This document shows positions 7,609 through 49,445 of a stretch of DNA of 64,000 bases, one piece after another. The stretch comes from Dehalococcoidia bacterium. Lineage in GTDB: Bacteria; Chloroflexota; Dehalococcoidia; UBA6926. The stretch's first letter is position 1. Every line of letters begins with the position of its first letter. The position numbers were made by a program, and so were the translations under genes. The notes below the pieces were generated by a model. It made no database searches. It worked only from the letters and a program-made list of their open reading frames with translations, and had not been told where the DNA came from. Location: positions 1,139,473 to 1,203,472 of the forward strand of contig CBDCQG010000001.1 in the NCBI GenBank assembly GCA_965220565.1, read 5' to 3'.

Positions 7609-8907
7609 TTATTCGGATGCCGGTGACGGCGCTGAAGGTTGTCTCGGTCGCGTGACCGTGAGCGTCAGCGGTATGGAGATGCTCAGGATCGCCGCGATTA
7701 TCACGAACCCGATAACGTAGCTTTCCGTTTGGTCGTAGAGCCAGCCGATGGCAACCGGCGACAGGATCGCGGGCAGTGAGGCCAGCCCCTGCTGTATGCC
7801 GGCCACTCGTCCGAATATCGCCAGTCCCCAATACTCCGCCTGGAGCGCCAGCCTCACCGATGATTGTGAGCCGATGGCGCTGCCCAGCAGGAACCCGGCA
7901 AGAATCGTCAACCAGGGCACGGTCGACATGGGTATCAGCACGATTGCGATGCCCTGCACCGTGATCCCCACGGCAAGCACCACGCGCTTGTCCACGTAGT
8001 CGGCCACCGTTCCGGCGATGACGCGAATGGGAATGCTTGAGCCGGTCTGCCACGCAAACATAAAGGCGATGAATTCCCTGGAGAACCCGTTCTTCTGCAG
8101 GATGAGCGCCTCGAACGTGATGATCGACCATGACGCGCCCAACAGCGCGCTCGCGATGACATATTGCCAATAGCCCCTGCTGCGCAGGACCTCTCTCAGG
8201 GTGAAATTGGCCTCCGGCAAAACGTTGAGCCGGGACGATTCTGCAATCTCACTGTCCGGCGCCTCGCCGCCGTCCGGCTCCATACCGTAGTCCTGCGGCC
8301 TGTTGCGGATGAGGGGAATCAGGATCATCCCCACAACCCAGAAGCCGACCCCCGCGCCGAAAAGCACTGACCGCCAGCCGAACTCCGGGATGATCCAAGC
8401 CCAGACTCCCGCCAGCAGGCCGGACATTCCCGGCCCGACGAGCATGATGCCGTTGGCGCGTCCCCGGAATCGCCGGAACCACGCATTGATTGCCGCTGCA
8501 GTGACGGTGAACGCGCCCGCGCTGAGGCCGAACGCAAAGACGATGAAGACGCCGTAGTATTGCCAGATATTCTCGACCTGGCTCATCAACATGCAGCCGC
8601 CGCCCGAAACGAAGTACCCAACGATGAGCACCTTGCGCGCGCCATATCGATCAACGAGGTAGCCGGTCAAGGGCGCGGTGATGCCGGACTCCAGCCGCTG
8701 CAGTGACGGGCCAATTCCTGCCAGTGCCTGCGACCACCCAAAGTGTCGGACCATCGCGGCGAAGAAGTTTGAGAAGCCCCAAAAGCCGATGCCGTCCGTG
8801 TAGGCGGCAAGCCCAGTTCCCGCCAGCGTCACCCACCAGCCGTAGAAGACCTGCCGGGGATGCCGCACGAACATCCACGCCGTCATGACGACCTTTTCGG
8901 TTCTCAC
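7609..8907 (-). CDS. MFS transporter, paralog 2 of 3
   Basis: It carries TGYLVDRYGARK and is clearly paralogous to the flanking MFS genes. Confidence 0.75.
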   Translation of the reverse strand: MRTEKVVMTAWMFVRHPRQVFYGWWVTLAGTGLAAYTDGIGFWGFSNFFAAMVRHFGWSQALAGIGPSLQRLESGITAPLTGYLVDRYGARKVLIVGYFVSGGGCMLMSQVENIWQYYGVFIVFAFGLSAGAFTVTAAAINAWFRRFRGRANGIMLVGPGMSGLLAGVWAWIIPEFGWRSVLFGAGVGFWVVGMILIPLIRNRPQDYGMEPDGGEAPDSEIAESSRLNVLPEANFTLREVLRSRGYWQYVIASALLGASWSIITFEALILQKNGFSREFIAFMFAWQTGSSIPIRVIAGTVADYVDKRVVLAVGITVQGIAIVLIPMSTVPWLTILAGFLLGSAIGSQSSVRLALQAEYWGLAIFGRVAGIQQGLASLPAILSPVAIGWLYDQTESYVIGFVIIAAILSISIPLTLTVTRPRQPSAPSPASE

Positions 8908-10193
8908 GCGGCGAGTCTCACAGTATCAGCAGCACCCCTCTGTGGGCGGGTCATCAGAAGAACCATAATCACCGCTAGAGCAAGAGGAATCACGACGGTC
9001 ATAAAGGCTATGCGGTAATCGTATATGTCTGCGAGCCAACCCACCAGCACAGGCGAGATGAGGCCGCCTACCGCCCCTGCCCCAACCTGCAGGCCCATCA
9101 GCGAGCCGAAGATGCCGCGCCCCCAGTAGTCGCCCTGCAATGACAGCCGCGCGGCGTTGCTGCCTCCCCAGCCAGTGCCATAGATGACCTCAAAGATGAT
9201 CGCCACCCAGATGTTGGCGATGAAGATGAAGAGGATTCCTCCGGCCAACTGGAAGCTCAGCATCGTCGCAACGACCAATTTCTTGTTGAACCTGTCGGCG
9301 AGCGCGCCGGAGAAGAAACGCATCGGGATGCTGGCGACGGTGAACACAACGACCATCGCGCCCGCCGTCTCCATGGAGAAGCCGTAGCTGACCAGCGCGG
9401 GAATGTGGTGGACGACCATCGCGGTGATGGCCACCTGCTGCATGGAGAGAGCGCCGACATAGAGCAGATATGAACGACTCAAAAGGATGGAACGCACCGC
9501 GCCGGGCGACGGCTCAGCGTCGGCCAGATCTCCGGCTTGCCCCGAGTTCGCGTCGTCCGGCTCCGGCGGATCGCCGTCCATGCGGAGGCCGTAATGCTCC
9601 GGTCGCCTCCTCAGAACCATCGCGAGCGGGATGCATGTTACCCAGGTGCCGATGCCGGTGAACAGGGCAGCATCACGCCAACCGTATTCCCGTATCAGGA
9701 CAACCAGAAGCGCCGTCATGATGCCCCCGAAACCCGGGCCGATGAACGTCAGGCCAAGCGCCTTGCCGCGGTTGCGCAGGAACCAGTTGCTGACGGCGGT
9801 CGCCACCATCACGTAGGATGTCGCGCCCATGCCGCTGCCGATGAGGATGAACGCGACGTAGTACTGCCATGCGTGCTCGACGTGGCTCAGCACGATAAAT
9901 CCCGCCCCGCCGCTGAACATCGCCACCGCCGTCACGAAGCGAGGGCCGAATCGGTCCGTGAGCGCTCCGATGGTCGGACTCAGGATCGCCGTGAACACAG
10001 CCATCATTGCGGGTCCGCGCGAGACCTGCTCCCGCGTCCAGTTCAGATCGAGTCGGATGCTGTCAAAGAACGCGCTGAACCCGAAGAAACTGACGCCAGT
10101 CGTGTAGAACATCAGGTACAGGCCGGACAGCGCCATCCACCAGCCATAGAAAAGGCGCGGACGGCGGCGAGTCACTTGTACATCGGCAGACAT
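8904..10193 (-). CDS. MFS transporter, paralog 3 of 3
   Basis: It carries GALTDRFGPRF and its stop overlaps the start of paralog 2 by 4 nt (ATGA). The start is taken at the internal Met (MSADVQ...). Confidence 0.7.
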   Translation of the reverse strand: MSADVQVTRRRPRLFYGWWMALSGLYLMFYTTGVSFFGFSAFFDSIRLDLNWTREQVSRGPAMMAVFTAILSPTIGALTDRFGPRFVTAVAMFSGGAGFIVLSHVEHAWQYYVAFILIGSGMGATSYVMVATAVSNWFLRNRGKALGLTFIGPGFGGIMTALLVVLIREYGWRDAALFTGIGTWVTCIPLAMVLRRRPEHYGLRMDGDPPEPDDANSGQAGDLADAEPSPGAVRSILLSRSYLLYVGALSMQQVAITAMVVHHIPALVSYGFSMETAGAMVVVFTVASIPMRFFSGALADRFNKKLVVATMLSFQLAGGILFIFIANIWVAIIFEVIYGTGWGGSNAARLSLQGDYWGRGIFGSLMGLQVGAGAVGGLISPVLVGWLADIYDYRIAFMTVVIPLALAVIMVLLMTRPQRGAADTVRLAA

Positions 10194-21798: not shown

Positions 21799-22545
21799 CT
21801 ATCCGTTCATGTTTCCGCTGTTGAACTCAACGAGCTTGGGCCAATCAATCAGGCCACGGTCATTGCAGAATCTATCAGTCAATTCAGCAGCCAACTTATT
21901 CACCAGCCCCTTCCTGAGTTCGCGAAACTCATCATTGCGCTCCTTTGCGCGATGACCAATGGGCTCCACGATGTCCTTGTAGAGATTCACATCGTCGCTG
22001 ATGAAATGCCAAAAGCTCTGACCTACAACCTTCTTCCAACCGTGATTTGTCTGTTCAACTGTCCTCGATCGGCCATAACAACAACCAAGAACGGTTCGGA
22101 CACTGGCGTTGCGATCATTCTGTCGGATTCGCGTTACGGCACTGTTCAGGTTCTGAGCCAAGCGCTCATGCTGCGAATTGTTGCCCCAATTCGGGCCAGA
22201 CTTGATGGATACCAGATAGTGCGTGCCGCCCTCAGTGAATTCAAGGTCAACACCCGGTACTGCCGATTTTCGTCCATCGGACGTTTGACCTGAGACAAAG
22301 ATCGCCAGGCCTTCAAGGAACTCACCAAATCTCTCCTCTTCTGAAGACGATAGAGAGGCGTCGAGGAAACTCTCGACTAGCTCTTGGCTTGACCCGATGT
22401 TCCTGGCACGGAAAAGGTATGGGTTCTTGCGCTTAAGCAGCTCATTCAACTTGAGTCCCTCAAGCTTCTGTACGCGGCCAGCGTGGAATGCTCCAATGTT
22501 GTCGTTGACATACGCACGGACTGCGTCCAAGCTGAGGGGCCTCAT
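21799..22545 (-). CDS. Putative Type II restriction endonuclease
   Basis: Coupled to the upstream methyltransferase by an ATGA overlap. GC ~51% against ~65% background. GVDLEF...YLVSIKS could be a PD-(D/E)xK core. The family cannot be assigned by eye. Confidence 0.5.
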   Translation of the reverse strand: MRPLSLDAVRAYVNDNIGAFHAGRVQKLEGLKLNELLKRKNPYLFRARNIGSSQELVESFLDASLSSSEEERFGEFLEGLAIFVSGQTSDGRKSAVPGVDLEFTEGGTHYLVSIKSGPNWGNNSQHERLAQNLNSAVTRIRQNDRNASVRTVLGCCYGRSRTVEQTNHGWKKVVGQSFWHFISDDVNLYKDIVEPIGHRAKERNDEFRELRKGLVNKLAAELTDRFCNDRGLIDWPKLVEFNSGNMNG

Positions 22546-23468
22546 GTCCGGCTCTCCACCTCTCCATACTCTCTAGTCGGCCTTTCGGCCAATGCCGGTA
22601 TCTTGACTTGTGTCTCATCGGTCCTGCGCCTGCTGAGTTCCACGAAATCGTTATTGGTATCGATACCCAAATATTGTCGGCCAAGCTCGACGGCAGCCAC
22701 TGCAGTGCTCCCCGAACCGATAAAGGGATCAAGCACAACATCACCCGGTTCTGTAAACAGCTTTATGAACCAGCTTGGCAAGGCGACTGGGAATGCTGCG
22801 CTATGATTCTGGTTCGACGATTCGGTTGCCAAGTGCAGAACATTGGTCGGATAAACCATGTCACGATCAATCCAGTTTGCAACCCGCTTACCGAAACCAC
22901 TGCCAACCTTCGACTCATCCCTGATCTTGTCAGTTTCGCTCAGATTTGCGAGTCGATGCTTGGCCCAACCACCAACCGGTGCCATCACTGATTCTTGAAA
23001 CATTTTGAATTGGCGCTGCCTATTGAACTGGAGCAGCCTCTCCCAATTGTTTCGGAAGCGGTTCGGCCACTTGCCGGGGTAAGAGTTCTTCTTATGCCAG
23101 ATGAATTCTTCGGTCCATAACCATCCCCGACGCCGCATCTCCAGAATCAGCTCCAATACGTAGGTATGGCGCTCTCCATTCACGGCAGGTTCCTTGATAT
23201 TCAGGATGAACGTTCCTTCAGGTTTGAGCACTCGAAAGAACTGGTCAGCCTTTGGCAAGAACCATTCGACATACTCGTCCGGACTGATACCGCCATAGCT
23301 GTTCTTTCTTTGGTCAGCATACGGTGGAGAAGTAACTATGAGGTCAACCGAATTAGGTGGGTAGGCAAGCAAGACATCCTGACAATCGCCCTCGAGAATG
23401 GTGTTGAACTTAGGGGTTTTCTCGCTCTTCCCAGTTCCAGTCAACGGGCGCCTAACCTCTATGCTCAT
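22542..23468 (-). CDS. DNA methyltransferase, beta-class N4-cytosine/N6-adenine (PF01555-like)
   Basis: Motif IV DLIVTSPPY precedes motif I VLDPFIGSGSTAVAA, the beta permutation order. Low GC. Confidence 0.85.
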   Translation of the reverse strand: MSIEVRRPLTGTGKSEKTPKFNTILEGDCQDVLLAYPPNSVDLIVTSPPYADQRKNSYGGISPDEYVEWFLPKADQFFRVLKPEGTFILNIKEPAVNGERHTYVLELILEMRRRGWLWTEEFIWHKKNSYPGKWPNRFRNNWERLLQFNRQRQFKMFQESVMAPVGGWAKHRLANLSETDKIRDESKVGSGFGKRVANWIDRDMVYPTNVLHLATESSNQNHSAAFPVALPSWFIKLFTEPGDVVLDPFIGSGSTAVAAVELGRQYLGIDTNNDFVELSRRRTDETQVKIPALAERPTREYGEVESRT

Positions 23469-42595: not shown

Positions 42596-43083
42596 GCCTC
42601 ATGGCTGAGAAACATGCAGAAGATGGGCGCGGCGTCCAGTACGATGTCTCGGCAGGCGGAGCGGTCGTCCGATGCACAGCGGACGCGCGGCTTGAGGTCG
42701 TTATCTGCCGCCGCGCCGCCACCGGCCTCCTGGCACTGCCGAAGGGCACGCCGGAGCCCGGCGAGACGCGGGAGGAGACGGCGCTGCGCGAGGTCCGTGA
42801 GGAGACCGGACTGAGCGTCGCCATCATCGGGGAACTCGGCAGCGTGCGCTATACATTCATGGCAGAGGGAGTGCTGCACGACAAACGGGTCTACCATTAC
42901 CTGATGGAGCCGATCAGCGGCAGCGTTGACGACCATGACAGTGAGTTTGATAGCGTTGAGTGGCTGCCCCTTGAACCCGTTACGCTGGCCAGGATGACGT
43001 ACGATACGGATGTGGAGATTCTTAACAGGGCCATTCTCGCGATGGCGAACAACCCGGACAGAGCCGATGGTCGCACGGACTAA
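42589..43083 (+). CDS. NUDIX hydrolase
   Basis: NUDIX box GTPEPGETREETALREVREETGL. Confidence 0.75.
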   Translation: MVSLMAEKHAEDGRGVQYDVSAGGAVVRCTADARLEVVICRRAATGLLALPKGTPEPGETREETALREVREETGLSVAIIGELGSVRYTFMAEGVLHDKRVYHYLMEPISGSVDDHDSEFDSVEWLPLEPVTLARMTYDTDVEILNRAILAMANNPDRADGRTD

Positions 43084-43624
43084 GCCGCTCATCGTCACCG
43101 GACAGCGCGTCGGCCTGAGAGACAAGGCCGAGTTTGACGCGTGGAACGATTTCCTGTGGCGCTCGGACGATGAGCTGGCCGAGCTGGACGCCACCTACCC
43201 GCTCAAGATGTCCTATGAACAATACGCTCCCATTCACAAGGACGACCTGAATTACATCTCAAAGCGCAGCCACCGCTTCGCCATCGTTGAGTTGTCTGAG
43301 GGCAAGCACATCGGCAACTGCATGTATTACGACCTTGACCGGCGCGCCAAGGAGGCTGAACTCGGCATCATGATCGGCGACCGCGCCTATTGGAACGGCG
43401 GGTACGGCACGGATGCCGTAAGACTCCTGACAAGCTGGATGTTCAACAAGCTGGAACTGAATCGCGTCTACCTCAAGACGCTGGACTGGAACGTCCGCGC
43501 CCAACGCGCGTTCGGGAAAGCGGGATTCACACAGACCGGTTTCCGTGACCAGGGCCGCTACCGCTTCATGCTGATGGACATCAAGCGGGACGTTTGGGAG
43601 GACATGCAGGGGGACGAAGGCTAA
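43067..43624 (+). CDS. GNAT family N-acetyltransferase (RimJ/RimL-like)
   Basis: ELGIMIGDRAYWNGGYGTDAVRLL is an acetyl-CoA-binding motif. The start is set at the ATG after the NUDIX stop. Confidence 0.7.
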   Translation: MVARTKPLIVTGQRVGLRDKAEFDAWNDFLWRSDDELAELDATYPLKMSYEQYAPIHKDDLNYISKRSHRFAIVELSEGKHIGNCMYYDLDRRAKEAELGIMIGDRAYWNGGYGTDAVRLLTSWMFNKLELNRVYLKTLDWNVRAQRAFGKAGFTQTGFRDQGRYRFMLMDIKRDVWEDMQGDEG

Positions 43625-43637
43625 ACCGCCACATTCC

Positions 43638-44078
43638 CTAGGTCGGGATGAGGGACGAAAGCCTGTCACCGCATTCCGCGACGATTATCCTGCTCTCGGA
43701 TTCTCCTAGCGTCACAGTTCGTCCTCGAAGTGCTCTGCGGGGATCCTTTTCGCTACGATGCACAAGAATGGGAAAGAAATGGTCGACGATCTGACCATCC
43801 AAACTATTGACGAGCATATCCAAGCCATTCTGAATCTGCTCTACGATCTGTTTGGTTCTCAGTTGCTGCCCACCTTTGAGTTCAATCATCGCGATCCAAC
43901 GACTGTCGTTGGACAACACGGCAAAGTCTGCCGTCCGACCCGGGGCCCTGAGCACTCTCTTCGCGCAGTCCATTGAGAGAACGCTAATCGAGCCCTGCAT
44001 CCCTCGCAGGCTGAGGCTGCAACCCTCTTCTTCACACCTATCAGTCAGACAGTTGTTCAACCTCGCGGGAACGTCCAC
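43638..44078 (-). CDS. Small protein with a PD-(D/E)xK-like core, putative nuclease effector
   Basis: GTG start 2 nt after the ATPase stop. The motif D(FAVL)-N12-IAMIELKGG resembles the Hjc/RecB-type hD...hhhExK core. The region is ~50% GC. Confidence 0.4.
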   Translation of the reverse strand: MDVPARLNNCLTDRCEEEGCSLSLRGMQGSISVLSMDCAKRVLRAPGRTADFAVLSNDSRWIAMIELKGGQQLRTKQIVEQIQNGLDMLVNSLDGQIVDHFFPILVHRSEKDPRRALRGRTVTLGESESRIIVAECGDRLSSLIPT

Positions 44079-44080
44079 CC

Positions 44081-45511
44081 TTACCGTCCCGCGTATTCGA
44101 GGTCTATCGCCTCGTCGTAGATTTCGGTGTGAACCTCCGTGAACGAGTCCAGCGGAATTCCACGCTCCGCATCCACCGCCAGTGGACGCGCGACTGACCC
44201 GTCTGGGCCGGGCTCAAACATATACGCTCCGACATCGTCCGGTTGAAGGACCTCTTCGGCCTTGTACCGCCTCGCCGCCCGTCGCCGCTTCGATATTCCG
44301 CTCAGCATGACAAGGTTGCCCAACTGCGAGACGAGAAAATCGCTGTGTGTCGTGATAAGCACCTTCACGCCAGCGTTGACCAACATGGCAATCGCCCGTG
44401 CAAGACGACGCTGGTTGCCCGCATCGATATGCGACTCCGGCTCCTCGATGATGAACATATCCCCAGGCTCAACCATGTGTTTCAAATACAAGACGATGGG
44501 TGCGATTTCGGAAACCATCGACGAGGCCTCATGGAGCTGGAGTCTGCCCGCTTCGCCTTCAAAATAGACGGATGGGTATTCAGAAGAATCATCCAGCCTG
44601 ATTGAGCCGTGGGCCATCTTGTCCTCAAGATAATCAATAATCTCGTCCAATTGCGTTCCATGAGGTGCGTCTGGCGTCATCAACAAAAGATCCTGGATCA
44701 GGTCCGTCACGAAGCCGGGAAGGCGCGGAATCTCCAGCGAGCGTATCCATGCCCGCGAAGCTTGACCAACGATGAGGCTGGAGAACGTCTTGTGTCCAAG
44801 CAGAATGCCGGATCTGCTCGCTGGCATATAGTGCGCATGATCCAAGACTTTGGGGGGAGGGAATATCCCCAAGTTGGAGAACAGCATGCCCATCAAAAGG
44901 TTCTCGGAAATGTCTTCGAATTGAGGCAAGCGCGAGTTAAATGTCTGATCTGCCAGACTGTTCTGCCAGATTTCCGTGCCGAGATCACCACCTGCCGCCC
45001 TCGTCTCCCATTTGAACGCCCTGGCGTGCTGCTCAATTTCGATAGTCAGCTTTGGACGCTGCTTCCCATTGGCGCGCCGTCGAACCCTCTCTATGTCAGT
45101 GCCGTAAACCCGCTTGATTTCAGATGAGAGCATTTGTGCTAATCCTGCAGCAAACGCTTGGGACGCTCCTTCAAAGAGAGCTTGGATGCTCTGTGGCAGT
45201 TGCTCAATCTTCGGATTGTCAGGAAGCCGGCCTCCTCCGATCGAACGACCATCTGGGAAGATCCTCTCGACATCTTCCTTGGCCTTTAGGAGGAGTTCAG
45301 GGTTTATGAAATCGCCGAAATTCAGGTCGAATTCCCTCCAAGGCATCCTGCCGCCAAGCCTTCTTTCGGCAAGCGTCCTGGACAGGCAGTAGATTGCGAG
45401 AGCCATGTACGACTTGCCCGAATTGTTCGGGCCGACGAACACAGTCAAAGGCTTGATGTCCACCGAGGCCCGTCCTATCGGGCCCAGATCGCTCACACTG
45501 ACCGTTGTCAT
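44081..45511 (-). CDS. AAA15/ABC-type (OLD/SMC-like) ATPase
   Basis: Walker A GPNNSGKSY, YMPASRSG (Y.PA.R motif), Walker B MFIIEEPESHID and H-loop ITTHSDF. Low GC. Confidence 0.7.
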   Translation of the reverse strand: MTTVSVSDLGPIGRASVDIKPLTVFVGPNNSGKSYMALAIYCLSRTLAERRLGGRMPWREFDLNFGDFINPELLLKAKEDVERIFPDGRSIGGGRLPDNPKIEQLPQSIQALFEGASQAFAAGLAQMLSSEIKRVYGTDIERVRRRANGKQRPKLTIEIEQHARAFKWETRAAGGDLGTEIWQNSLADQTFNSRLPQFEDISENLLMGMLFSNLGIFPPPKVLDHAHYMPASRSGILLGHKTFSSLIVGQASRAWIRSLEIPRLPGFVTDLIQDLLLMTPDAPHGTQLDEIIDYLEDKMAHGSIRLDDSSEYPSVYFEGEAGRLQLHEASSMVSEIAPIVLYLKHMVEPGDMFIIEEPESHIDAGNQRRLARAIAMLVNAGVKVLITTHSDFLVSQLGNLVMLSGISKRRRAARRYKAEEVLQPDDVGAYMFEPGPDGSVARPLAVDAERGIPLDSFTEVHTEIYDEAIDLEYAGR

Positions 45512-45599
45512 CTCACGTCGTCCATCCTCTGATCGTGTCTCAGCATGAATCCACTATACGCCCCTGATGCGATGGGCAGCACGGGAATGACGGAGGGGG

Positions 45600-45983
45600 C
45601 TACTCCAAAACCGCCGTGGCTTCTATTTCTATGAGGTAGTCCGGGTGGGCGAGGCCGCTGATGAATAGCAGCGTGCTCGCGGGCGGGTCGTGAGGGATAT
45701 GGCGCTGGCGCGCCGCCCGATAGCCCTCGAGGTCCTCTCGCCGCGTGAGAAACGTCGTGACCTTGATCACATTCGCCCACGTTGCGCCGACAGACCCAAG
45801 CGCGACCTCAAGGTTGCTGAACACCTGCTCCGCCTGCTCTTCAATGCTGCCGACACCGACAATCTCGCCGGCCGCATTCTGGGATGTCTGGCCGGCAATG
45901 TGGATGAAGTTGCCAACCTTCACGACCTGCGTGTAGGCCGCCGGTTTGCTCAGCCCGTCCGGTTGTAGTCGCTCGATAGCCAT
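45600..45983 (-). CDS. ridA: RidA/YjgF family reactive-intermediate deaminase
   Basis: About 128 aa with PAAYTQVVKVGNFIHIAGQ and ARQRHIP...PASTL. Confidence 0.8.
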   Translation of the reverse strand: MAIERLQPDGLSKPAAYTQVVKVGNFIHIAGQTSQNAAGEIVGVGSIEEQAEQVFSNLEVALGSVGATWANVIKVTTFLTRREDLEGYRAARQRHIPHDPPASTLLFISGLAHPDYLIEIEATAVLE

Positions 45984-46003
45984 GATGTTTCCCCTTCCCC
46001 TAT

Positions 46004-47152
46004 TCAATTCTGCGTCATTCTGAGGGCAGCGGCGATAGATTCCCCGAACTCGCGCGCTTGCCATTCTCGCACGACGGATGCCCCTTCTCCCATCTCATCA
46101 TTCAGCAGCGACGGATCACGCGCCAGCCGTTCCAGGCTCGGCATCGGCCAGATGAGAGCGGGATCGAGTTCCAATTCTTCGCCCCGATCGTTCCGCCATG
46201 CCTTGAGGTCACGGAGGCGGTCAATCTGCTCCCGGGTTGGTCGACCCTCAGCACCGCCGGAGTTTGCATTGCCGTTTCGCGGTCGTGTAACCGGCGGGGA
46301 GGCAAGGCCGCGTTCTCGCGCTCGCTGCAGCCGTTTGCCGTACCGACGCAGCGAGTTCGGCGGTATGCCCTCGATCTCGGTCAGATGATCACGTCCCGCG
46401 GCTGCGATGGTGGTCAGAACCGCGTCGCTCATGATCTTGAACGGTGGCATATCGCGCCGCACTCCTTCGTTGTGACGAAAGACGTACAGCTCGCGAAGCA
46501 CAGCCAGTTCCTGCGGCCCCAGCGCCCGGCTGCCCTTGGCGTTCAGGAAGGCGATATCGGGCGGATCAGGCACGCGATAGCGCACGCTTTCCAGACGCCG
46601 GAATTCCTCTTCAACCCACTCAAGCCGCCCCAGGTCTTCAAGCCGGCGTCCCAGTTCGGCGCGCAGGTCCTGCAGATGCAGCACATCGTCGACGGCGTAT
46701 TGGAGCGCCTCATCAGGCAGCGGCCTCACCGTCCAGTCCGCGCGCTGAAGGCTCTTGGACTTGACGATGGCGACGCCGAGCGCATCCAGCAGGACGGAGT
46801 CCAGCCCCACACGCCGCATGCCGCAGAATTGCGCCGCGATGCTCGTATCAAAGACGTTGGCAACGCGGAACGACCATTCCTTGTCCAGGACACGGATGTC
46901 ATTGGAGGCGGCGTGGATGACTTTTTCGACGTTCGGATTGGCCATCAGCGCGCCCAGCGGCGCGATGTCATCCGCCGTCATCTCAAGCGGGTCAAGGACC
47001 CATGCCCTGCCCCCCGTGGCTATCTGCACCAGGCAGACCCGATCGGGAAAGCGATGGAAGCTGTTGGATTCCGTGTCGATGACGATGCACTGCTCCAAGG
47101 ACAAACGCTCAACGAGCGCAGCCAGCCCCTCGGCATCATCGATAATGTCCAC
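46004..47152 (-). CDS. rnd: Ribonuclease D (DEDDy 3'-5' exonuclease + HRDC)
   Basis: VIDTESNSFHRF (Exo I), HAASNDIRVL (Exo II) and YAVDDV (Exo III). Confidence 0.8.
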   Translation of the reverse strand: MDIIDDAEGLAALVERLSLEQCIVIDTESNSFHRFPDRVCLVQIATGGRAWVLDPLEMTADDIAPLGALMANPNVEKVIHAASNDIRVLDKEWSFRVANVFDTSIAAQFCGMRRVGLDSVLLDALGVAIVKSKSLQRADWTVRPLPDEALQYAVDDVLHLQDLRAELGRRLEDLGRLEWVEEEFRRLESVRYRVPDPPDIAFLNAKGSRALGPQELAVLRELYVFRHNEGVRRDMPPFKIMSDAVLTTIAAAGRDHLTEIEGIPPNSLRRYGKRLQRARERGLASPPVTRPRNGNANSGGAEGRPTREQIDRLRDLKAWRNDRGEELELDPALIWPMPSLERLARDPSLLNDEMGEGASVVREWQAREFGESIAAALRMTQN

Positions 47153-47175: not shown

Positions 47176-49398
47176 TCAGTTCAGTTTCTCCAATCCGGCA
47201 AGTCCGGCCAGCAGGCGCTTGACGCCCTGGCCCTTGAACGCGACTGTTACCTCAAAATCGTCCCGCGTCGGCGTTTCTAGGCATGCGACGACGACACCCT
47301 GTCCGAACTTCGCATGACCCACGTGGTCGCCGGGCCTGAACGGCGCGGGGGCCTTTGGCACGTCCAACTGCGGCTCCGGCATCGGCTCCCGCGGGCCGGA
47401 GAGTCCGAACATCGACGGCATCCGCCGCTTGACCAGGTTGTCCGGCAGGTCCTGGAGAAAGCGTGATGCCTTGCGCGGGCCGTATTGCCCGCGGGTGTTG
47501 CGCCGCAGCGCGTATGTCATGTAGAGACGCTCCATCGCCCGCGTCATGCCGACGTAGCACAGGCGCCGCTCCTCCTCCATCTCAGCCGGATCATCCGAAT
47601 CGATGGATCGGATATGCGGCAGCAGTTCTTCCTCGCAGCCCACGATGAAGCCAACGGGAAACTCCAGCCCCTTGGCCTGGTGCAAAGTGATGAGGGTCAC
47701 TGCATCCTGCCGCTCTGAGCCCTCCTCGCGTATCGCGGCATCAAGGTCGGTGGACAGCGCCACCTGGTCAAGGAATGCCGCGAACGCCTCCTCCGGCGCG
47801 AGCGCCTGGTATTGGGCCGCGACGTTGCGCAGCTCTTCAACATTGTCTAGCCGATCCTCCGCGTTCTCGTCCGCCTCAAGGAAATCTCTATAGCCGGTCT
47901 TGGTCAGAACCTGGTCAAAGAACTCCAGAATGTTCTCACCCTGCAGGGCCTCAAGGAGTTCCGTCATCATTTGGACGAATGCGCGGACCGGGCCTTGCGA
48001 CTGCGATGGCAGATTCGGGGCATTTGCCTCTTGCCCGTCCGCCGCGACCTGCATGGCCGCGTACAGTGGCAAGCCGCTGGCCTCCGCCCATTGCTGCAGG
48101 AGGTCCAGTGACCGTTTTCCGATGCCGCGCGTGGGAACATTGACGATGCGCAGCAAGCTGATGTCGTCGAACGGATTCCGCAGGACGCGCAGGTATGCGA
48201 CGACATCCTTGATCTCACGCCGTTCCCAGAAGCGCAGTCCGCCGATGATGCGGTAACGGATACCCGCCCGGTTGAAGGCGTCCTCAAACGCGCGAGATTG
48301 GGCGTTTGTGCGGTACATGATGGCGCAGTCGCCGTACCGGGCAGAATCCTCGTTGACCAGCCGCTCGATCTCCTCCGCGACGTAGAGGGCCTCGTACTCC
48401 TCATCGTCAGTCGGCTCAATAGTGACCCTGGAGCCAGCGCCTTTATTCGCGACCAGTTCAATCTCTTTGCGGTCCTTATTTGTCTTCACAAGCGCATGGG
48501 CGGCATCAACAATGGTGGACGTGGAGCGGTAGTTGCGCCCCAGTGACACGGTCTTCCCTTCCGGGAAGTCCTTTTCGAATCGCAGGATATTCTGAATGTC
48601 TGCCTGTCGCCACGAGTAAATGGACTGGTCGGGGTCGCCGACGACACAGAGATTGTGGTGCTTTCCGGCAACGAGATGAGTTAACTCATACTGCGCGCGG
48701 TTCGTGTCCTGCCACTCATCAACCATCATGTGGCTATAGCGATTCTGGAGTTTGTCTCGTACTTCAGGATTTGAACGCAGCAGAAGAACCAGCTTCATCA
48801 GCAAATCATCGAAGTCAACCGCATGCGCAGCCTGCAAGAGTTGCTCATAGCGGTCATAACAGGCGGCCACGATCTTCTCGTACCGGTTTCCCGCCTGCGA
48901 CGTGTAGTCGCCGACGGTGAGCATCATGTTCTTCGCCCCACTCACCGCATTAAGGATGGCTGCCGGTCGATACATCCGCGGATCAAGTCCCTCAGCCTCA
49001 ACAACACGCCGCATCAGGTTTGTCTGATCATCCTGGTCGTAGATAACGAAATCGTCGGGAACGTGTATCTCCTCGCCATACTGCCGCAGGATGCGCGCTC
49101 CAAAAGCGTGAAAGGTGCCCATCGTCAATTGATTCGCCTGCTCACCGATGAGTCCTTCAATGCGGGAGCGCATCTCTCGCGCTGCCCTGTTTGTGAACGT
49201 GACTGCAAGGATGCGCCGCGGATTAACGCCGAGTGTTCGCACAAGGTAGGCGATGCGGTGGGTGATAACGCGGGTCTTACCGGAACCGGGCCCGGCGATG
49301 ATCAGAATGGGGCCCTCGACAGTCTCAACTGCCTCACTTTGTTCTTTGTTCAGGTTTTCGAGAATATCGCGCGCTGCGGTAGTCATAGGAGAAACCAA
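47176..49398 (-). CDS. pcrA: ATP-dependent DNA helicase PcrA/UvrD (SF1A)
   Basis: LNKEQSEAV, Walker A AGPGSGKT, DEWQDTN, and ~740 aa. Confidence 0.85.
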   Translation of the reverse strand: MVSPMTTAARDILENLNKEQSEAVETVEGPILIIAGPGSGKTRVITHRIAYLVRTLGVNPRRILAVTFTNRAAREMRSRIEGLIGEQANQLTMGTFHAFGARILRQYGEEIHVPDDFVIYDQDDQTNLMRRVVEAEGLDPRMYRPAAILNAVSGAKNMMLTVGDYTSQAGNRYEKIVAACYDRYEQLLQAAHAVDFDDLLMKLVLLLRSNPEVRDKLQNRYSHMMVDEWQDTNRAQYELTHLVAGKHHNLCVVGDPDQSIYSWRQADIQNILRFEKDFPEGKTVSLGRNYRSTSTIVDAAHALVKTNKDRKEIELVANKGAGSRVTIEPTDDEEYEALYVAEEIERLVNEDSARYGDCAIMYRTNAQSRAFEDAFNRAGIRYRIIGGLRFWERREIKDVVAYLRVLRNPFDDISLLRIVNVPTRGIGKRSLDLLQQWAEASGLPLYAAMQVAADGQEANAPNLPSQSQGPVRAFVQMMTELLEALQGENILEFFDQVLTKTGYRDFLEADENAEDRLDNVEELRNVAAQYQALAPEEAFAAFLDQVALSTDLDAAIREEGSERQDAVTLITLHQAKGLEFPVGFIVGCEEELLPHIRSIDSDDPAEMEEERRLCYVGMTRAMERLYMTYALRRNTRGQYGPRKASRFLQDLPDNLVKRRMPSMFGLSGPREPMPEPQLDVPKAPAPFRPGDHVGHAKFGQGVVVACLETPTRDDFEVTVAFKGQGVKRLLAGLAGLEKLN

Positions 49399-49445
49399 TC
49401 TCCGTTAAGCATACCAGCGGCGCGTCCGGCAATGTTGCCGAAAAC

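Follow-up and report, generated by a model that had tools for sequence, protein, structure and literature searches.

Between two housekeeping genes of a Dehalococcoidia bacterium, encoding RidA and a GNAT acetyltransferase, lies a compact cassette of two genes, one for an ATP-binding cassette (ABC) ATPase of the OLD/AAA15 type and the other for a small protein predicted to be a nuclease of the PD-(D/E)xK restriction-endonuclease fold. The cassette is part of a 64,000-nucleotide stretch of contig CBDCQG010000001.1, which is referred to here as the window and whose coordinates are used throughout. The pair has been acquired horizontally and inserted between the two housekeeping genes, and the best explanation for it, with a probability of about 0.68, is that of a free-standing two-gene anti-phage module belonging to a large unnamed sister clade of the PD-T4-4 and WonAB systems. 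Its catalytic motifs are intact, and its genes are translationally coupled, co-inherited, mobile between genomes and under purifying selection; the anti-phage function itself is proposed on grounds of homology. The initial annotation had already presented the pair as a possible phage-defence or abortive-infection system, and the homology to PD-T4-4 and WonAB, both of them validated, makes this a credible candidacy.

The acquisition is documented by a close relative. Scanning metagenomes with the flanking RNase D turned up a locus (L062) whose flanking proteins are 82–96% identical to those of the window (86% for RidA and 88% for GNAT), and in which the RidA and GNAT genes stand ~11 bp apart, with no ATPase, nuclease or methyltransferase (MTase) gene between them. 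There, GCCGTTT... follows directly after the RidA TAG and homology to the window restarts at GGCGGTTT (window ~43630); the borders of the insert are the RidA stop codon and a GGC[G/C]GTTT motif just past the GNAT end (window ~43631–45599). Because the site is empty in this relative, the cassette can be called foreign independently of its composition. The presence or absence of an island at the GNAT–RidA junction had been set beforehand as a check, and the empty site answers it, confirming the pair as an acquired insert between native genes.

A genome scan by ATPase alignment returned 55 loci, of which only L004, in a Dehalococcoidia metagenome-assembled genome (MAG) and on the same contig as L001, has the flanking genes of the window (81% identity for RidA and 87% for GNAT). 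The gene order in L004 is thiamine pyrophosphate enzyme–PcrA–Rnd–RidA–ATPase–nuclease–(N6/N4 MTase–HNH fusion)–GNAT–NUDIX–HEAT–PmbA/TldD. The fusion gene (7913–9391, minus strand, corresponding to L001:8402–9880) encodes 492 residues with a C-terminal HNH domain and, together with ~630 bp of extra sequence, separates the nuclease gene from GNAT; it is present neither in the window insert nor in L062. The RidA–GNAT junction is a three-state hotspot, which is found empty, with the pair, or with the pair plus the MTase–HNH gene. The insert showed no integrase, transposase or tRNA. Its borders carry an imperfect direct repeat of 21 nt (window 43610–43630 and 45595–45615, 71% identity, with the 8-nt exact core AAACCGCC); a target-site duplication was considered and rejected, since the empty site has neighbouring counterparts of each half, and the repeat is probably native microhomology.

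Nucleotide alignment divides the cassette into an 88-bp leader, the ATPase gene, the nuclease gene and a 13-bp tail (Table 1). Both open reading frames (ORFs) lie on the minus strand at the coordinates originally claimed for them, as does the GTG codon reported 2 nt past the ATPase stop: the ATPase gene ends in TAA, followed by GG and then by the GTG of the nuclease gene. The two genes are co-oriented and adjacent, and this 2-nt gap agrees, like the type of nuclease, with the arrangement that defines PD-T4-4. The 3′ half of the leader (GATCAGAGGATGGRCGRCGTGAG-ATG) is kept in L004, and a sigma-70 consensus scan of the 88 bp found no promoter. Comparison of the window with L004 gives a ratio of non-synonymous to synonymous divergence (dN/dS) of ~0.15 for both the ATPase and the nuclease, flanking genes ranging from 0.06 to 0.13, which indicates that the pair is being maintained by purifying selection. 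As to synonymous divergence itself, dS is 0.38 in the ATPase gene (L004:6001–7431), 0.90 in the nuclease gene and 0.64–0.92 in the flanking genes; the low ATPase value hints that the ATPase recently underwent exchange or gene conversion, or else that its codons are constrained.

At 55.2%, the insert has a lower guanine-plus-cytosine (GC) content than the window as a whole (mean 61.5%) or the flanking genes (59–65%). This dip lies 2.8 standard deviations under the mean of intervals of the same size, just 1.5% of which are equally low, and GC at third codon positions (GC3) is 63–65% in the cassette genes against 72–83% in the flanking genes. The foreign composition first described is thus real in its direction, the insert being lower in GC than its surroundings, but not in the values given for it, ~50% against ~65%. 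Elsewhere in the window, the 5′ part of the housekeeping gene pcrA (48400–49400) has a GC content of 53–57%, so a GC dip here need not mark an acquired cassette. The window reaches its lowest GC (52–55%) over a complete type II restriction–modification (R-M) cassette (21799–23468, minus strand), with genes for a restriction endonuclease of the EcoO109I family (Pfam E 9e-72) and for an N6/N4 DNA methyltransferase (E 9e-42), so that in this genome acquired defence genes and low-GC patches go together.

The association of the two genes extends far beyond the window. At about 45 of the 55 ATPase loci, an ORF of 140–200 residues follows the ATPase gene in tight coupling, 35 of these ORFs being recognisable homologues by phmmer, and when divergent nuclease homologues are taken as the starting point, a ~500-residue AAA_15/AAA_21 ATPase stands directly upstream every time. 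Neighbour clustering over the 55 loci finds only the ATPase and the small protein consistently linked; an obligatory three-gene system was rejected, since no third gene recurs. The pair occurs in ~50 other genomes in unrelated contexts, and the clade is chromosomal, being found in Chloroflexota, Spirochaetia, Acidimicrobiia, Nitrospirota and archaea. Neighbours seen repeatedly are otherwise metabolic genes that related genomes have in common (SDR, GGT, luciferase-like monooxygenase, acyl-CoA dehydrogenase and amidohydrolase). In L156:6549–9684 and L158:908–1957, the pair stands beside GmrSD_N (DUF262), a second AAA_15/DUF3696 ATPase and an unannotated 311-residue protein, or near Prok-E2_A/ThiF, and type I HsdS lies near three Spirochaetia loci (~3.6 kb upstream in L012, L019 and L021); the GmrSD_N/DUF3696, Prok-E2/ThiF and HsdS neighbourhoods are defence-island contexts. 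At five loci (L006, L012, L014, L016 and L020) the nuclease gene appears frameshifted, truncated or replaced beside a full-length ATPase ORF, which may reflect either loss of a toxic partner or assembly errors.

The ATPase matches the Pfam families AAA_15 (1.1e-15) and AAA_21 (6.9e-15) and has more than 1,664 homologues. Motif invariance was scored in an alignment of 21 full-length homologues, in which all the motifs initially quoted are present and invariant, and T387 through D391 form an invariant block. K33, R233, E356/E357 and H389, the residues looked for in an OLD ABC ATPase of the WonAB type, are all invariant, and WonA homologues share GKS, IPASRS, IEEPE and TTHS motifs with the window ATPase, its YMPASRSG taking the form IFIPASRS in them. 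Judging from the motifs, R233 probably corresponds to R182 of WonA, and the four positions would be equivalent to WonA K34/R182/E300/H333. The AlphaFold2 (AF2) model of the ATPase has a predicted local distance difference test score (pLDDT) of 78.8, and its nearest solved folds are PtuA (Septu and retron-Septu) and SMC/Rad50 heads, at low TM-scores; a sequence search for solved relatives gave generic ABC matches only. The region of the C-terminal extension can be aligned with PD-T4-4_A, at 38% identity for residues 341–465 (profile domain 320–460), and, by analogy with WonAB, may be the docking site of the nuclease.

The small protein is modelled as a PD-(D/E)xK nuclease with a confident fold (AF2 pLDDT 94.8), and the core first proposed for it is borne out by residues D51, E66 and K68, conserved at 97–99% in 192 family members. 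In 43 aligned homologues, no columns but D51 and E66 are invariant, K68 and C20 exceeding 90%, and the ELK motif aligns with that of WonB. The original motif, D(FAVL)-N12-IAMIELKGG, captured a real D51...E66-L-K68 site with an erroneous spacing, since six residues stand between DFAVL and IAMIELKGG. When 1.84 billion representatives were searched exhaustively with a profile, the family came to 1,777 members (clusters at 50% identity, each counted by its representative), with 1,056 reaching E ≤ 1e-10, and all those inspected are labelled 'hypothetical protein'. A word-indexed search had returned 6 and then 19 matches, and the near-orphan status that these suggested was rejected as an index artefact on the strength of the profile search and locus mining. 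No solved relative is detectable by sequence. The N-terminal 26 residues, including a Cys-rich hairpin, are conserved in homologues, which supports the GTG start at 44078. Two public proteins, P0001 and P0004, begin at M27 (120 residues) and omit the conserved hairpin (window 44000–44078); given the conserved N-terminus, these annotations are truncated.

Table 1. Features of the cassette and of its native borders in window coordinates; invariance of ATPase residues refers to the 21-sequence alignment, and percentages to the 192 nuclease family members.
Feature	Position	Strand	Remarks
Whole inserted cassette	43631..45599	-	~1.97 kb, RidA stop codon to GNAT stop codon
88-bp leader upstream of ATPase, part of insert	45512..45599	-	No counterpart in L062
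OLD/AAA15-type ABC ATPase, predicted sensor/regulator	44081..45511	-	476 aa, ATG start
Walker A, G27-PNNSGKS-34	45410..45433	-	G27, N29, G32, K33, S34 invariant
YMPASRSG, residues 228-235, OLD-type Q-loop-region motif	44807..44830	-	Y228, P230, A231, R233, S234 invariant
Walker B / D-loop MFIIEEPESHID, residues 352-363	44423..44458	-	I354, E356, E357, P358, E359, H361, D363 invariant
H-loop TTHS, residues 387-390	44342..44353	-	T387, T388, H389, S390 invariant
ATPase C-terminal extension, ~residues 401-476	44084..44311	-	Candidate nuclease docking surface
Small PD-(D/E)xK restriction-endonuclease-fold nuclease, predicted effector	43638..44078	-	146 aa, GTG start
N-terminal Cys hairpin C15-x4-C20	44019..44036	-	C15 95%, C20 94%
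Predicted catalytic Asp D51	43926..43928	-	99%; invariant in 43 aligned homologues
Predicted catalytic E66-L67-K68	43875..43883	-	E66 99%, L67 85%, K68 97%
C136	43671-43673	-	Conserved in 89%
RidA (Ribonuc_L-PSP), native left border	45600..46064	-	Pfam 2.4e-24
GNAT acetyltransferase, native right border	43010..43624	+	Pfam Acetyltransf_3 5.4e-21

The relation of the pair to known defence systems was followed through profile comparisons; a fold search of BFVD found nothing significant (best E 1.1e-3). PD-T4-4 is a validated E. coli defence system, described as 'ATPase, nuclease' and 1,973 bp long (Vassallo 2022, PMC9519451, Table S1). Authentic PD-T4-4 pairs served as comparators: those of two plasmids (an E. 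coli Col plasmid and one of Serratia) and of a P2-like Vibrio phage, all of them verified with PADLOC (models of PADLOC-DB v2.0.0), together with those of two viral contigs. The window ATPase matches the PADLOC model PD-T4-4_A (PDLC04033) with E 3.6e-46 and 156 bits, in two stretches that cover the termini only; authentic members score 364–613 bits over their full length. In the other direction, the ATPase profile scores 131–138 bits against authentic PD-T4-4_A, over the N-terminal ~65 and the C-terminal ~140 residues only. The nuclease profile aligns to PD-T4-4_B by hhalign at 92.7% (E 4.2e-7, 78 columns), the CD...ELK...Q core being covered. None of the four PD-T4-4_B models in PADLOC matches the window nuclease at E ≤ 1, and they match just 2 of 43 nuclease family members, at best with 3.5e-5; strict membership in PD-T4-4 fails on this B gene.

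WonAB, encoded by the WASA-1 prophage of V. cholerae, combines an OLD-type ABC ATPase with the 16.1-kDa PD-(D/E)xK nuclease WonB, whose catalytic lysine is K71 (PMC12137116). Phage defence by WonAB needs both genes, the ATPase motifs and K71 of WonB, K71A being inactive; the toxicity of WonB requires active WonA, and translation is shut down with the genomic DNA left intact. Docking of WonB on the C-terminal extensions of dimerised WonA is predicted (PMC12137116). For comparison, the MacSyFinder WonB and Novel REase (restriction endonuclease) sequences from Supplementary Tables 4/5 of PMC12137116 stood in for V. cholerae WonB. Against them, the nuclease profile reaches 95.8% by hhalign (E 6.6e-9, 69 columns, with the CD...ELK...Q core covered), and the nuclease hidden Markov model (HMM) scores 15–23 bits on the individual WonB and Novel REase sequences. 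As is required of a WonAB partner, the window protein is a ~16-kDa restriction-fold protein with a D...ExK site and homology to WonB/Novel REase. The ATPase profile scores 55–74 bits against WonA/OLD-ABC sequences, at the termini only, and from these scores it is doubtful that the ATPase would pass the published WonAB MacSyFinder HMMs.

A confident mapping onto an already named system had been fixed beforehand as grounds for giving up the idea of an uncharacterised module, and the pair, which does not map confidently, goes only half-way there: the ATPase matches PD-T4-4_A at its termini, and the nuclease matches no model. The further idea that the pairing is a distinct, undescribed ATPase–nuclease architecture is not supported, because this architecture is already published as PD-T4-4, WonAB and the 'OLD-ABC ATPase + novel REase' operon. 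PMC12137116 attributes the last of these to Krishnan et al. 2020 and groups all three in one larger uncharacterised family. The pair is filed here as a sister clade, neither a PD-T4-4 member nor a new architecture.

The model proposed for the pair borrows largely from its better-known relatives. The ATPase would dimerise through its ABC heads, as ABC ATPase biology and the models of WonAB suggest, and its lineage-specific central inserts (~residues 45–320) may sense an infection cue. The conserved C-terminal extension would hold the 146-residue nuclease, and ATP binding or hydrolysis would license it, by extension of the genetics of WonAB. Once licensed, the nuclease is expected to cleave phosphodiester bonds in a metal-dependent manner through D51/E66/K68, and this nucleic-acid cleavage could arrest the infected cell before phage release, that is, act as abortive infection. 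Since genomic DNA remains intact and translation stops in the case of WonAB, the target may as plausibly be RNA, or linked to translation, as DNA.

Several points weigh against an anti-phage module of this kind. The function is argued from remote homology, the relation of the nuclease being visible by profile–profile comparison only, and the ~250 central residues of the ATPase have no alignable counterpart in the validated systems; trigger, target and outcome (abortive or direct) are likewise inferred. The nuclease itself has no match among Pfam, NCBIfam, PADLOC or PHROG models, so standard tools would not call a system at this locus. In the window genome, and at most Chloroflexota loci, the pair is surrounded by metabolic genes and no defence island, and a search of viral contigs by ATPase alignment returned canonical PD-T4-4 pairs only, none with the short nuclease type. 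Lastly, the window nuclease has Ala50 and Phe52 in the places of the C50 and C52 of its family.

These two positions belong to a set of cysteines that marks the family. In the AF2 model, C15 and C20 each open one strand of a β-hairpin; over the 192 members, C50 and C52, on either side of the predicted catalytic Asp, are present in 83% and 71%, the pattern of C15, C20, C50, C52 and C136 is complete in 85, and at least four of six candidate cysteines occur in 170. The window nuclease itself has C10, C15, C20, C38 and C136. This conservation suggests a structural metal site that would join the N-terminal hairpin to the C-terminal strand near the active site. A more speculative proposal, tentative enough to be judged improbable, is that a Zn or Fe-S centre in these ~150-residue nucleases, lacking in WonB and PD-T4-4_B, along with ATPase inserts that sense a trigger other than that of PD-T4-4/WonAB, sets the clade apart as a distinct class. 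If this were true, the Cys centre would define a class of metal-stapled or redox-sensitive effectors, mechanistically apart from WonB/PD-T4-4_B and widespread in Chloroflexota and archaea, where validated defence systems are almost nil.

It could also be argued that the pair is a selfish toxin–antitoxin (TA) or addiction module, in which the nuclease is the toxin and the ATPase its antitoxin or stabiliser, kept by post-segregational killing without a primary anti-phage role. The pair is indeed a compact mobile cassette of two genes, its nuclease could be toxic, and in Chloroflexota it lies dispersed between housekeeping genes with no enrichment in defence islands; decay of the nuclease beside a seemingly intact ATPase, as at the five loci mentioned above, is a pattern known from TA systems, and AAA_21 is the Pfam family of the 'putative AbiEii toxin, type IV TA'. 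For WonAB, however, this very model was tested and rejected, since WonA does not neutralise WonB and toxicity needs the ATPase activity of WonA (PMC12137116), and both the gene order and the conserved catalytic motifs of the window ATPase suit an activator or sensor, not an antitoxin. An addiction module is therefore an unlikely description of the pair, with the qualification that TA and abortive-infection roles are not mutually exclusive.

Still less probable is an R-M-like system, in which the pair would restrict unmodified foreign DNA and depend on a cognate methyltransferase such as the one beside the pair in L004. The adjacency of the N6_N4_Mtase–HNH fusion to the nuclease gene there, the type I HsdS genes upstream of the pair in L012, L019 and L021, and the restriction-endonuclease fold of the nuclease all speak for it. 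Yet the MTase–HNH neighbour occurs in only 2 of the 55 loci and is missing from the window insert, no MTase is consistently linked to the pair, the EcoO109I-type cassette of the window is a self-contained pair 20 kb off, and PD-T4-4 and WonAB both work as two genes without a methylase. A housekeeping ATPase–nuclease pair for DNA repair or recombination, analogous to SbcCD or to RecN/RecF-type ABC ATPases with a nuclease, was rejected as very improbable: the ATPase model resembles SMC/Rad50 heads, pcrA, rnd and RidA are among the neighbours and purifying selection matches that on the flanking genes in strength, but the absence of the pair from the same locus in L062 argues strongly against it, contexts differ in ~50 genomes, GC and GC3 deviate, the ATPase is without a long coiled coil and its best profile matches are defence systems.

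As a sister clade to PD-T4-4 and WonAB, the family of this cassette extends an emerging superfamily of ABC-ATPase sensors with small restriction-fold nucleases by a large bacterial and archaeal branch that lacks annotation. The PADLOC-DB v2.0.0 models compared here miss the nuclease partner, and systems of this kind are probably undercounted as a result, above all in uncultured Chloroflexota and in archaeal MAGs. The three-state locus is a clean illustration from nature of how a defence hotspot can lie between core genes without an integrase, and the Cys set and the divergent ATPase inserts provide handles on how the superfamily diversifies sensing and effector control.

Among systems with other partners, the best structural matches of the ATPase are the Septu PtuA proteins (8eea, 8sux and, for retron-Septu, 9n6b/9n69), whose ABC heads contain inserts (Foldseek E ~1e-11 to 1e-9); TM-scores are only 0.3–0.4, the partner PtuB is an HNH and not a PD-(D/E)xK protein, and PADLOC PtuA falls outside the best 25 of the 83 families that the window ATPase matches, GajA matching at ~1e-7. 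NsnB, AriA, HEC-02A and GajA score far under PD-T4-4_A (AriA and GajA 1e-18 to 1e-7). Membership in Septu, Gabija, PARIS or OLD was rejected because of these weak ATPase HMM scores and of the wrong partner, a PD-(D/E)xK protein with no HNH, TOPRIM or helicase match in Pfam; the initial view that the small protein is not HNH, TOPRIM, helicase or RloB is supported. HEC-02 is an ABC ATPase with a NERD nuclease, and both genes are required for defence (bioRxiv 2024.01.29.577857). It shares with the window pair the combination of an ABC ATPase and a PD-(D/E)xK-superfamily nuclease, but the match of the ATPase to HEC-02A is weak (5.6e-14), the partner is NERD-type and the HEC-02 ATPase has ~340 residues, so that the likeness is at the superfamily level only. 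The ATPase also matches PDC-M47A, from an untested PADLOC-DB candidate, with E 4.4e-36; PDC-M47B is weakly matched by 4 of 43 nuclease family members (best 1e-3) and not by the window nuclease, and this likeness is seen by HMM alone, no literature on PDC-M47 having been found.

The closest relatives remain PD-T4-4 and WonAB. With PD-T4-4 the window pair shares two co-oriented, coupled genes in ~1.9–2.0 kb, a ~460–475-residue ABC (AAA_15/21) ATPase followed by a PD-(D/E)xK nuclease, as well as a homologous Walker A region and a homologous C-terminal stretch of ~140 residues (Walker B, H-loop and C-terminal extension); the degenerate signature motif 'SSxVS' of its ATPase resembles that of PD-T4-4_A. 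It differs in the ~250 central residues of the ATPase, which cannot be aligned with PD-T4-4_A, and in the nuclease, of 146 residues with its lysine at 68 where PD-T4-4_B has 193–209 residues and a lysine at ~99; an N-terminal domain of ~70 residues is lacking, and the Cys hairpin stands in its place. PD-T4-4 is carried by plasmids, P2-like phages and integrative and conjugative elements, in contrast to the chromosomal clade of the window. One PD-T4-4 pair occupies the repressor–integrase hotspot of the P2-like Vibrio phage 1.202.O (NC_048066, L061:2020–4051), and others make up most of the cargo of 4–8-kb Col-type plasmids of E. coli and Klebsiella (L059, E. coli Col plasmid NZ_CP051743).

WonAB, for its part, shares with the window pair an OLD-type ABC ATPase with the 'PASRS' motif and a ~16-kDa restriction-fold nuclease. 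In size and in the position of the catalytic lysine (68 against K71) the window nuclease is nearer to WonB than to PD-T4-4_B, and its profile alignment with WonB takes in the N-terminal strands. The ATPase, on the contrary, is closer to PD-T4-4 than to WonAB, WonA being shorter (~330–395 residues) and having a canonical-looking SSGQQ signature. The C15/C20/C136 pattern of the window family is not found in WonB. Homologues of WonAB were reported mainly in Gram-negative bacteria, and the part of the distribution tables of PMC12137116 that was covered lists no Chloroflexota names.

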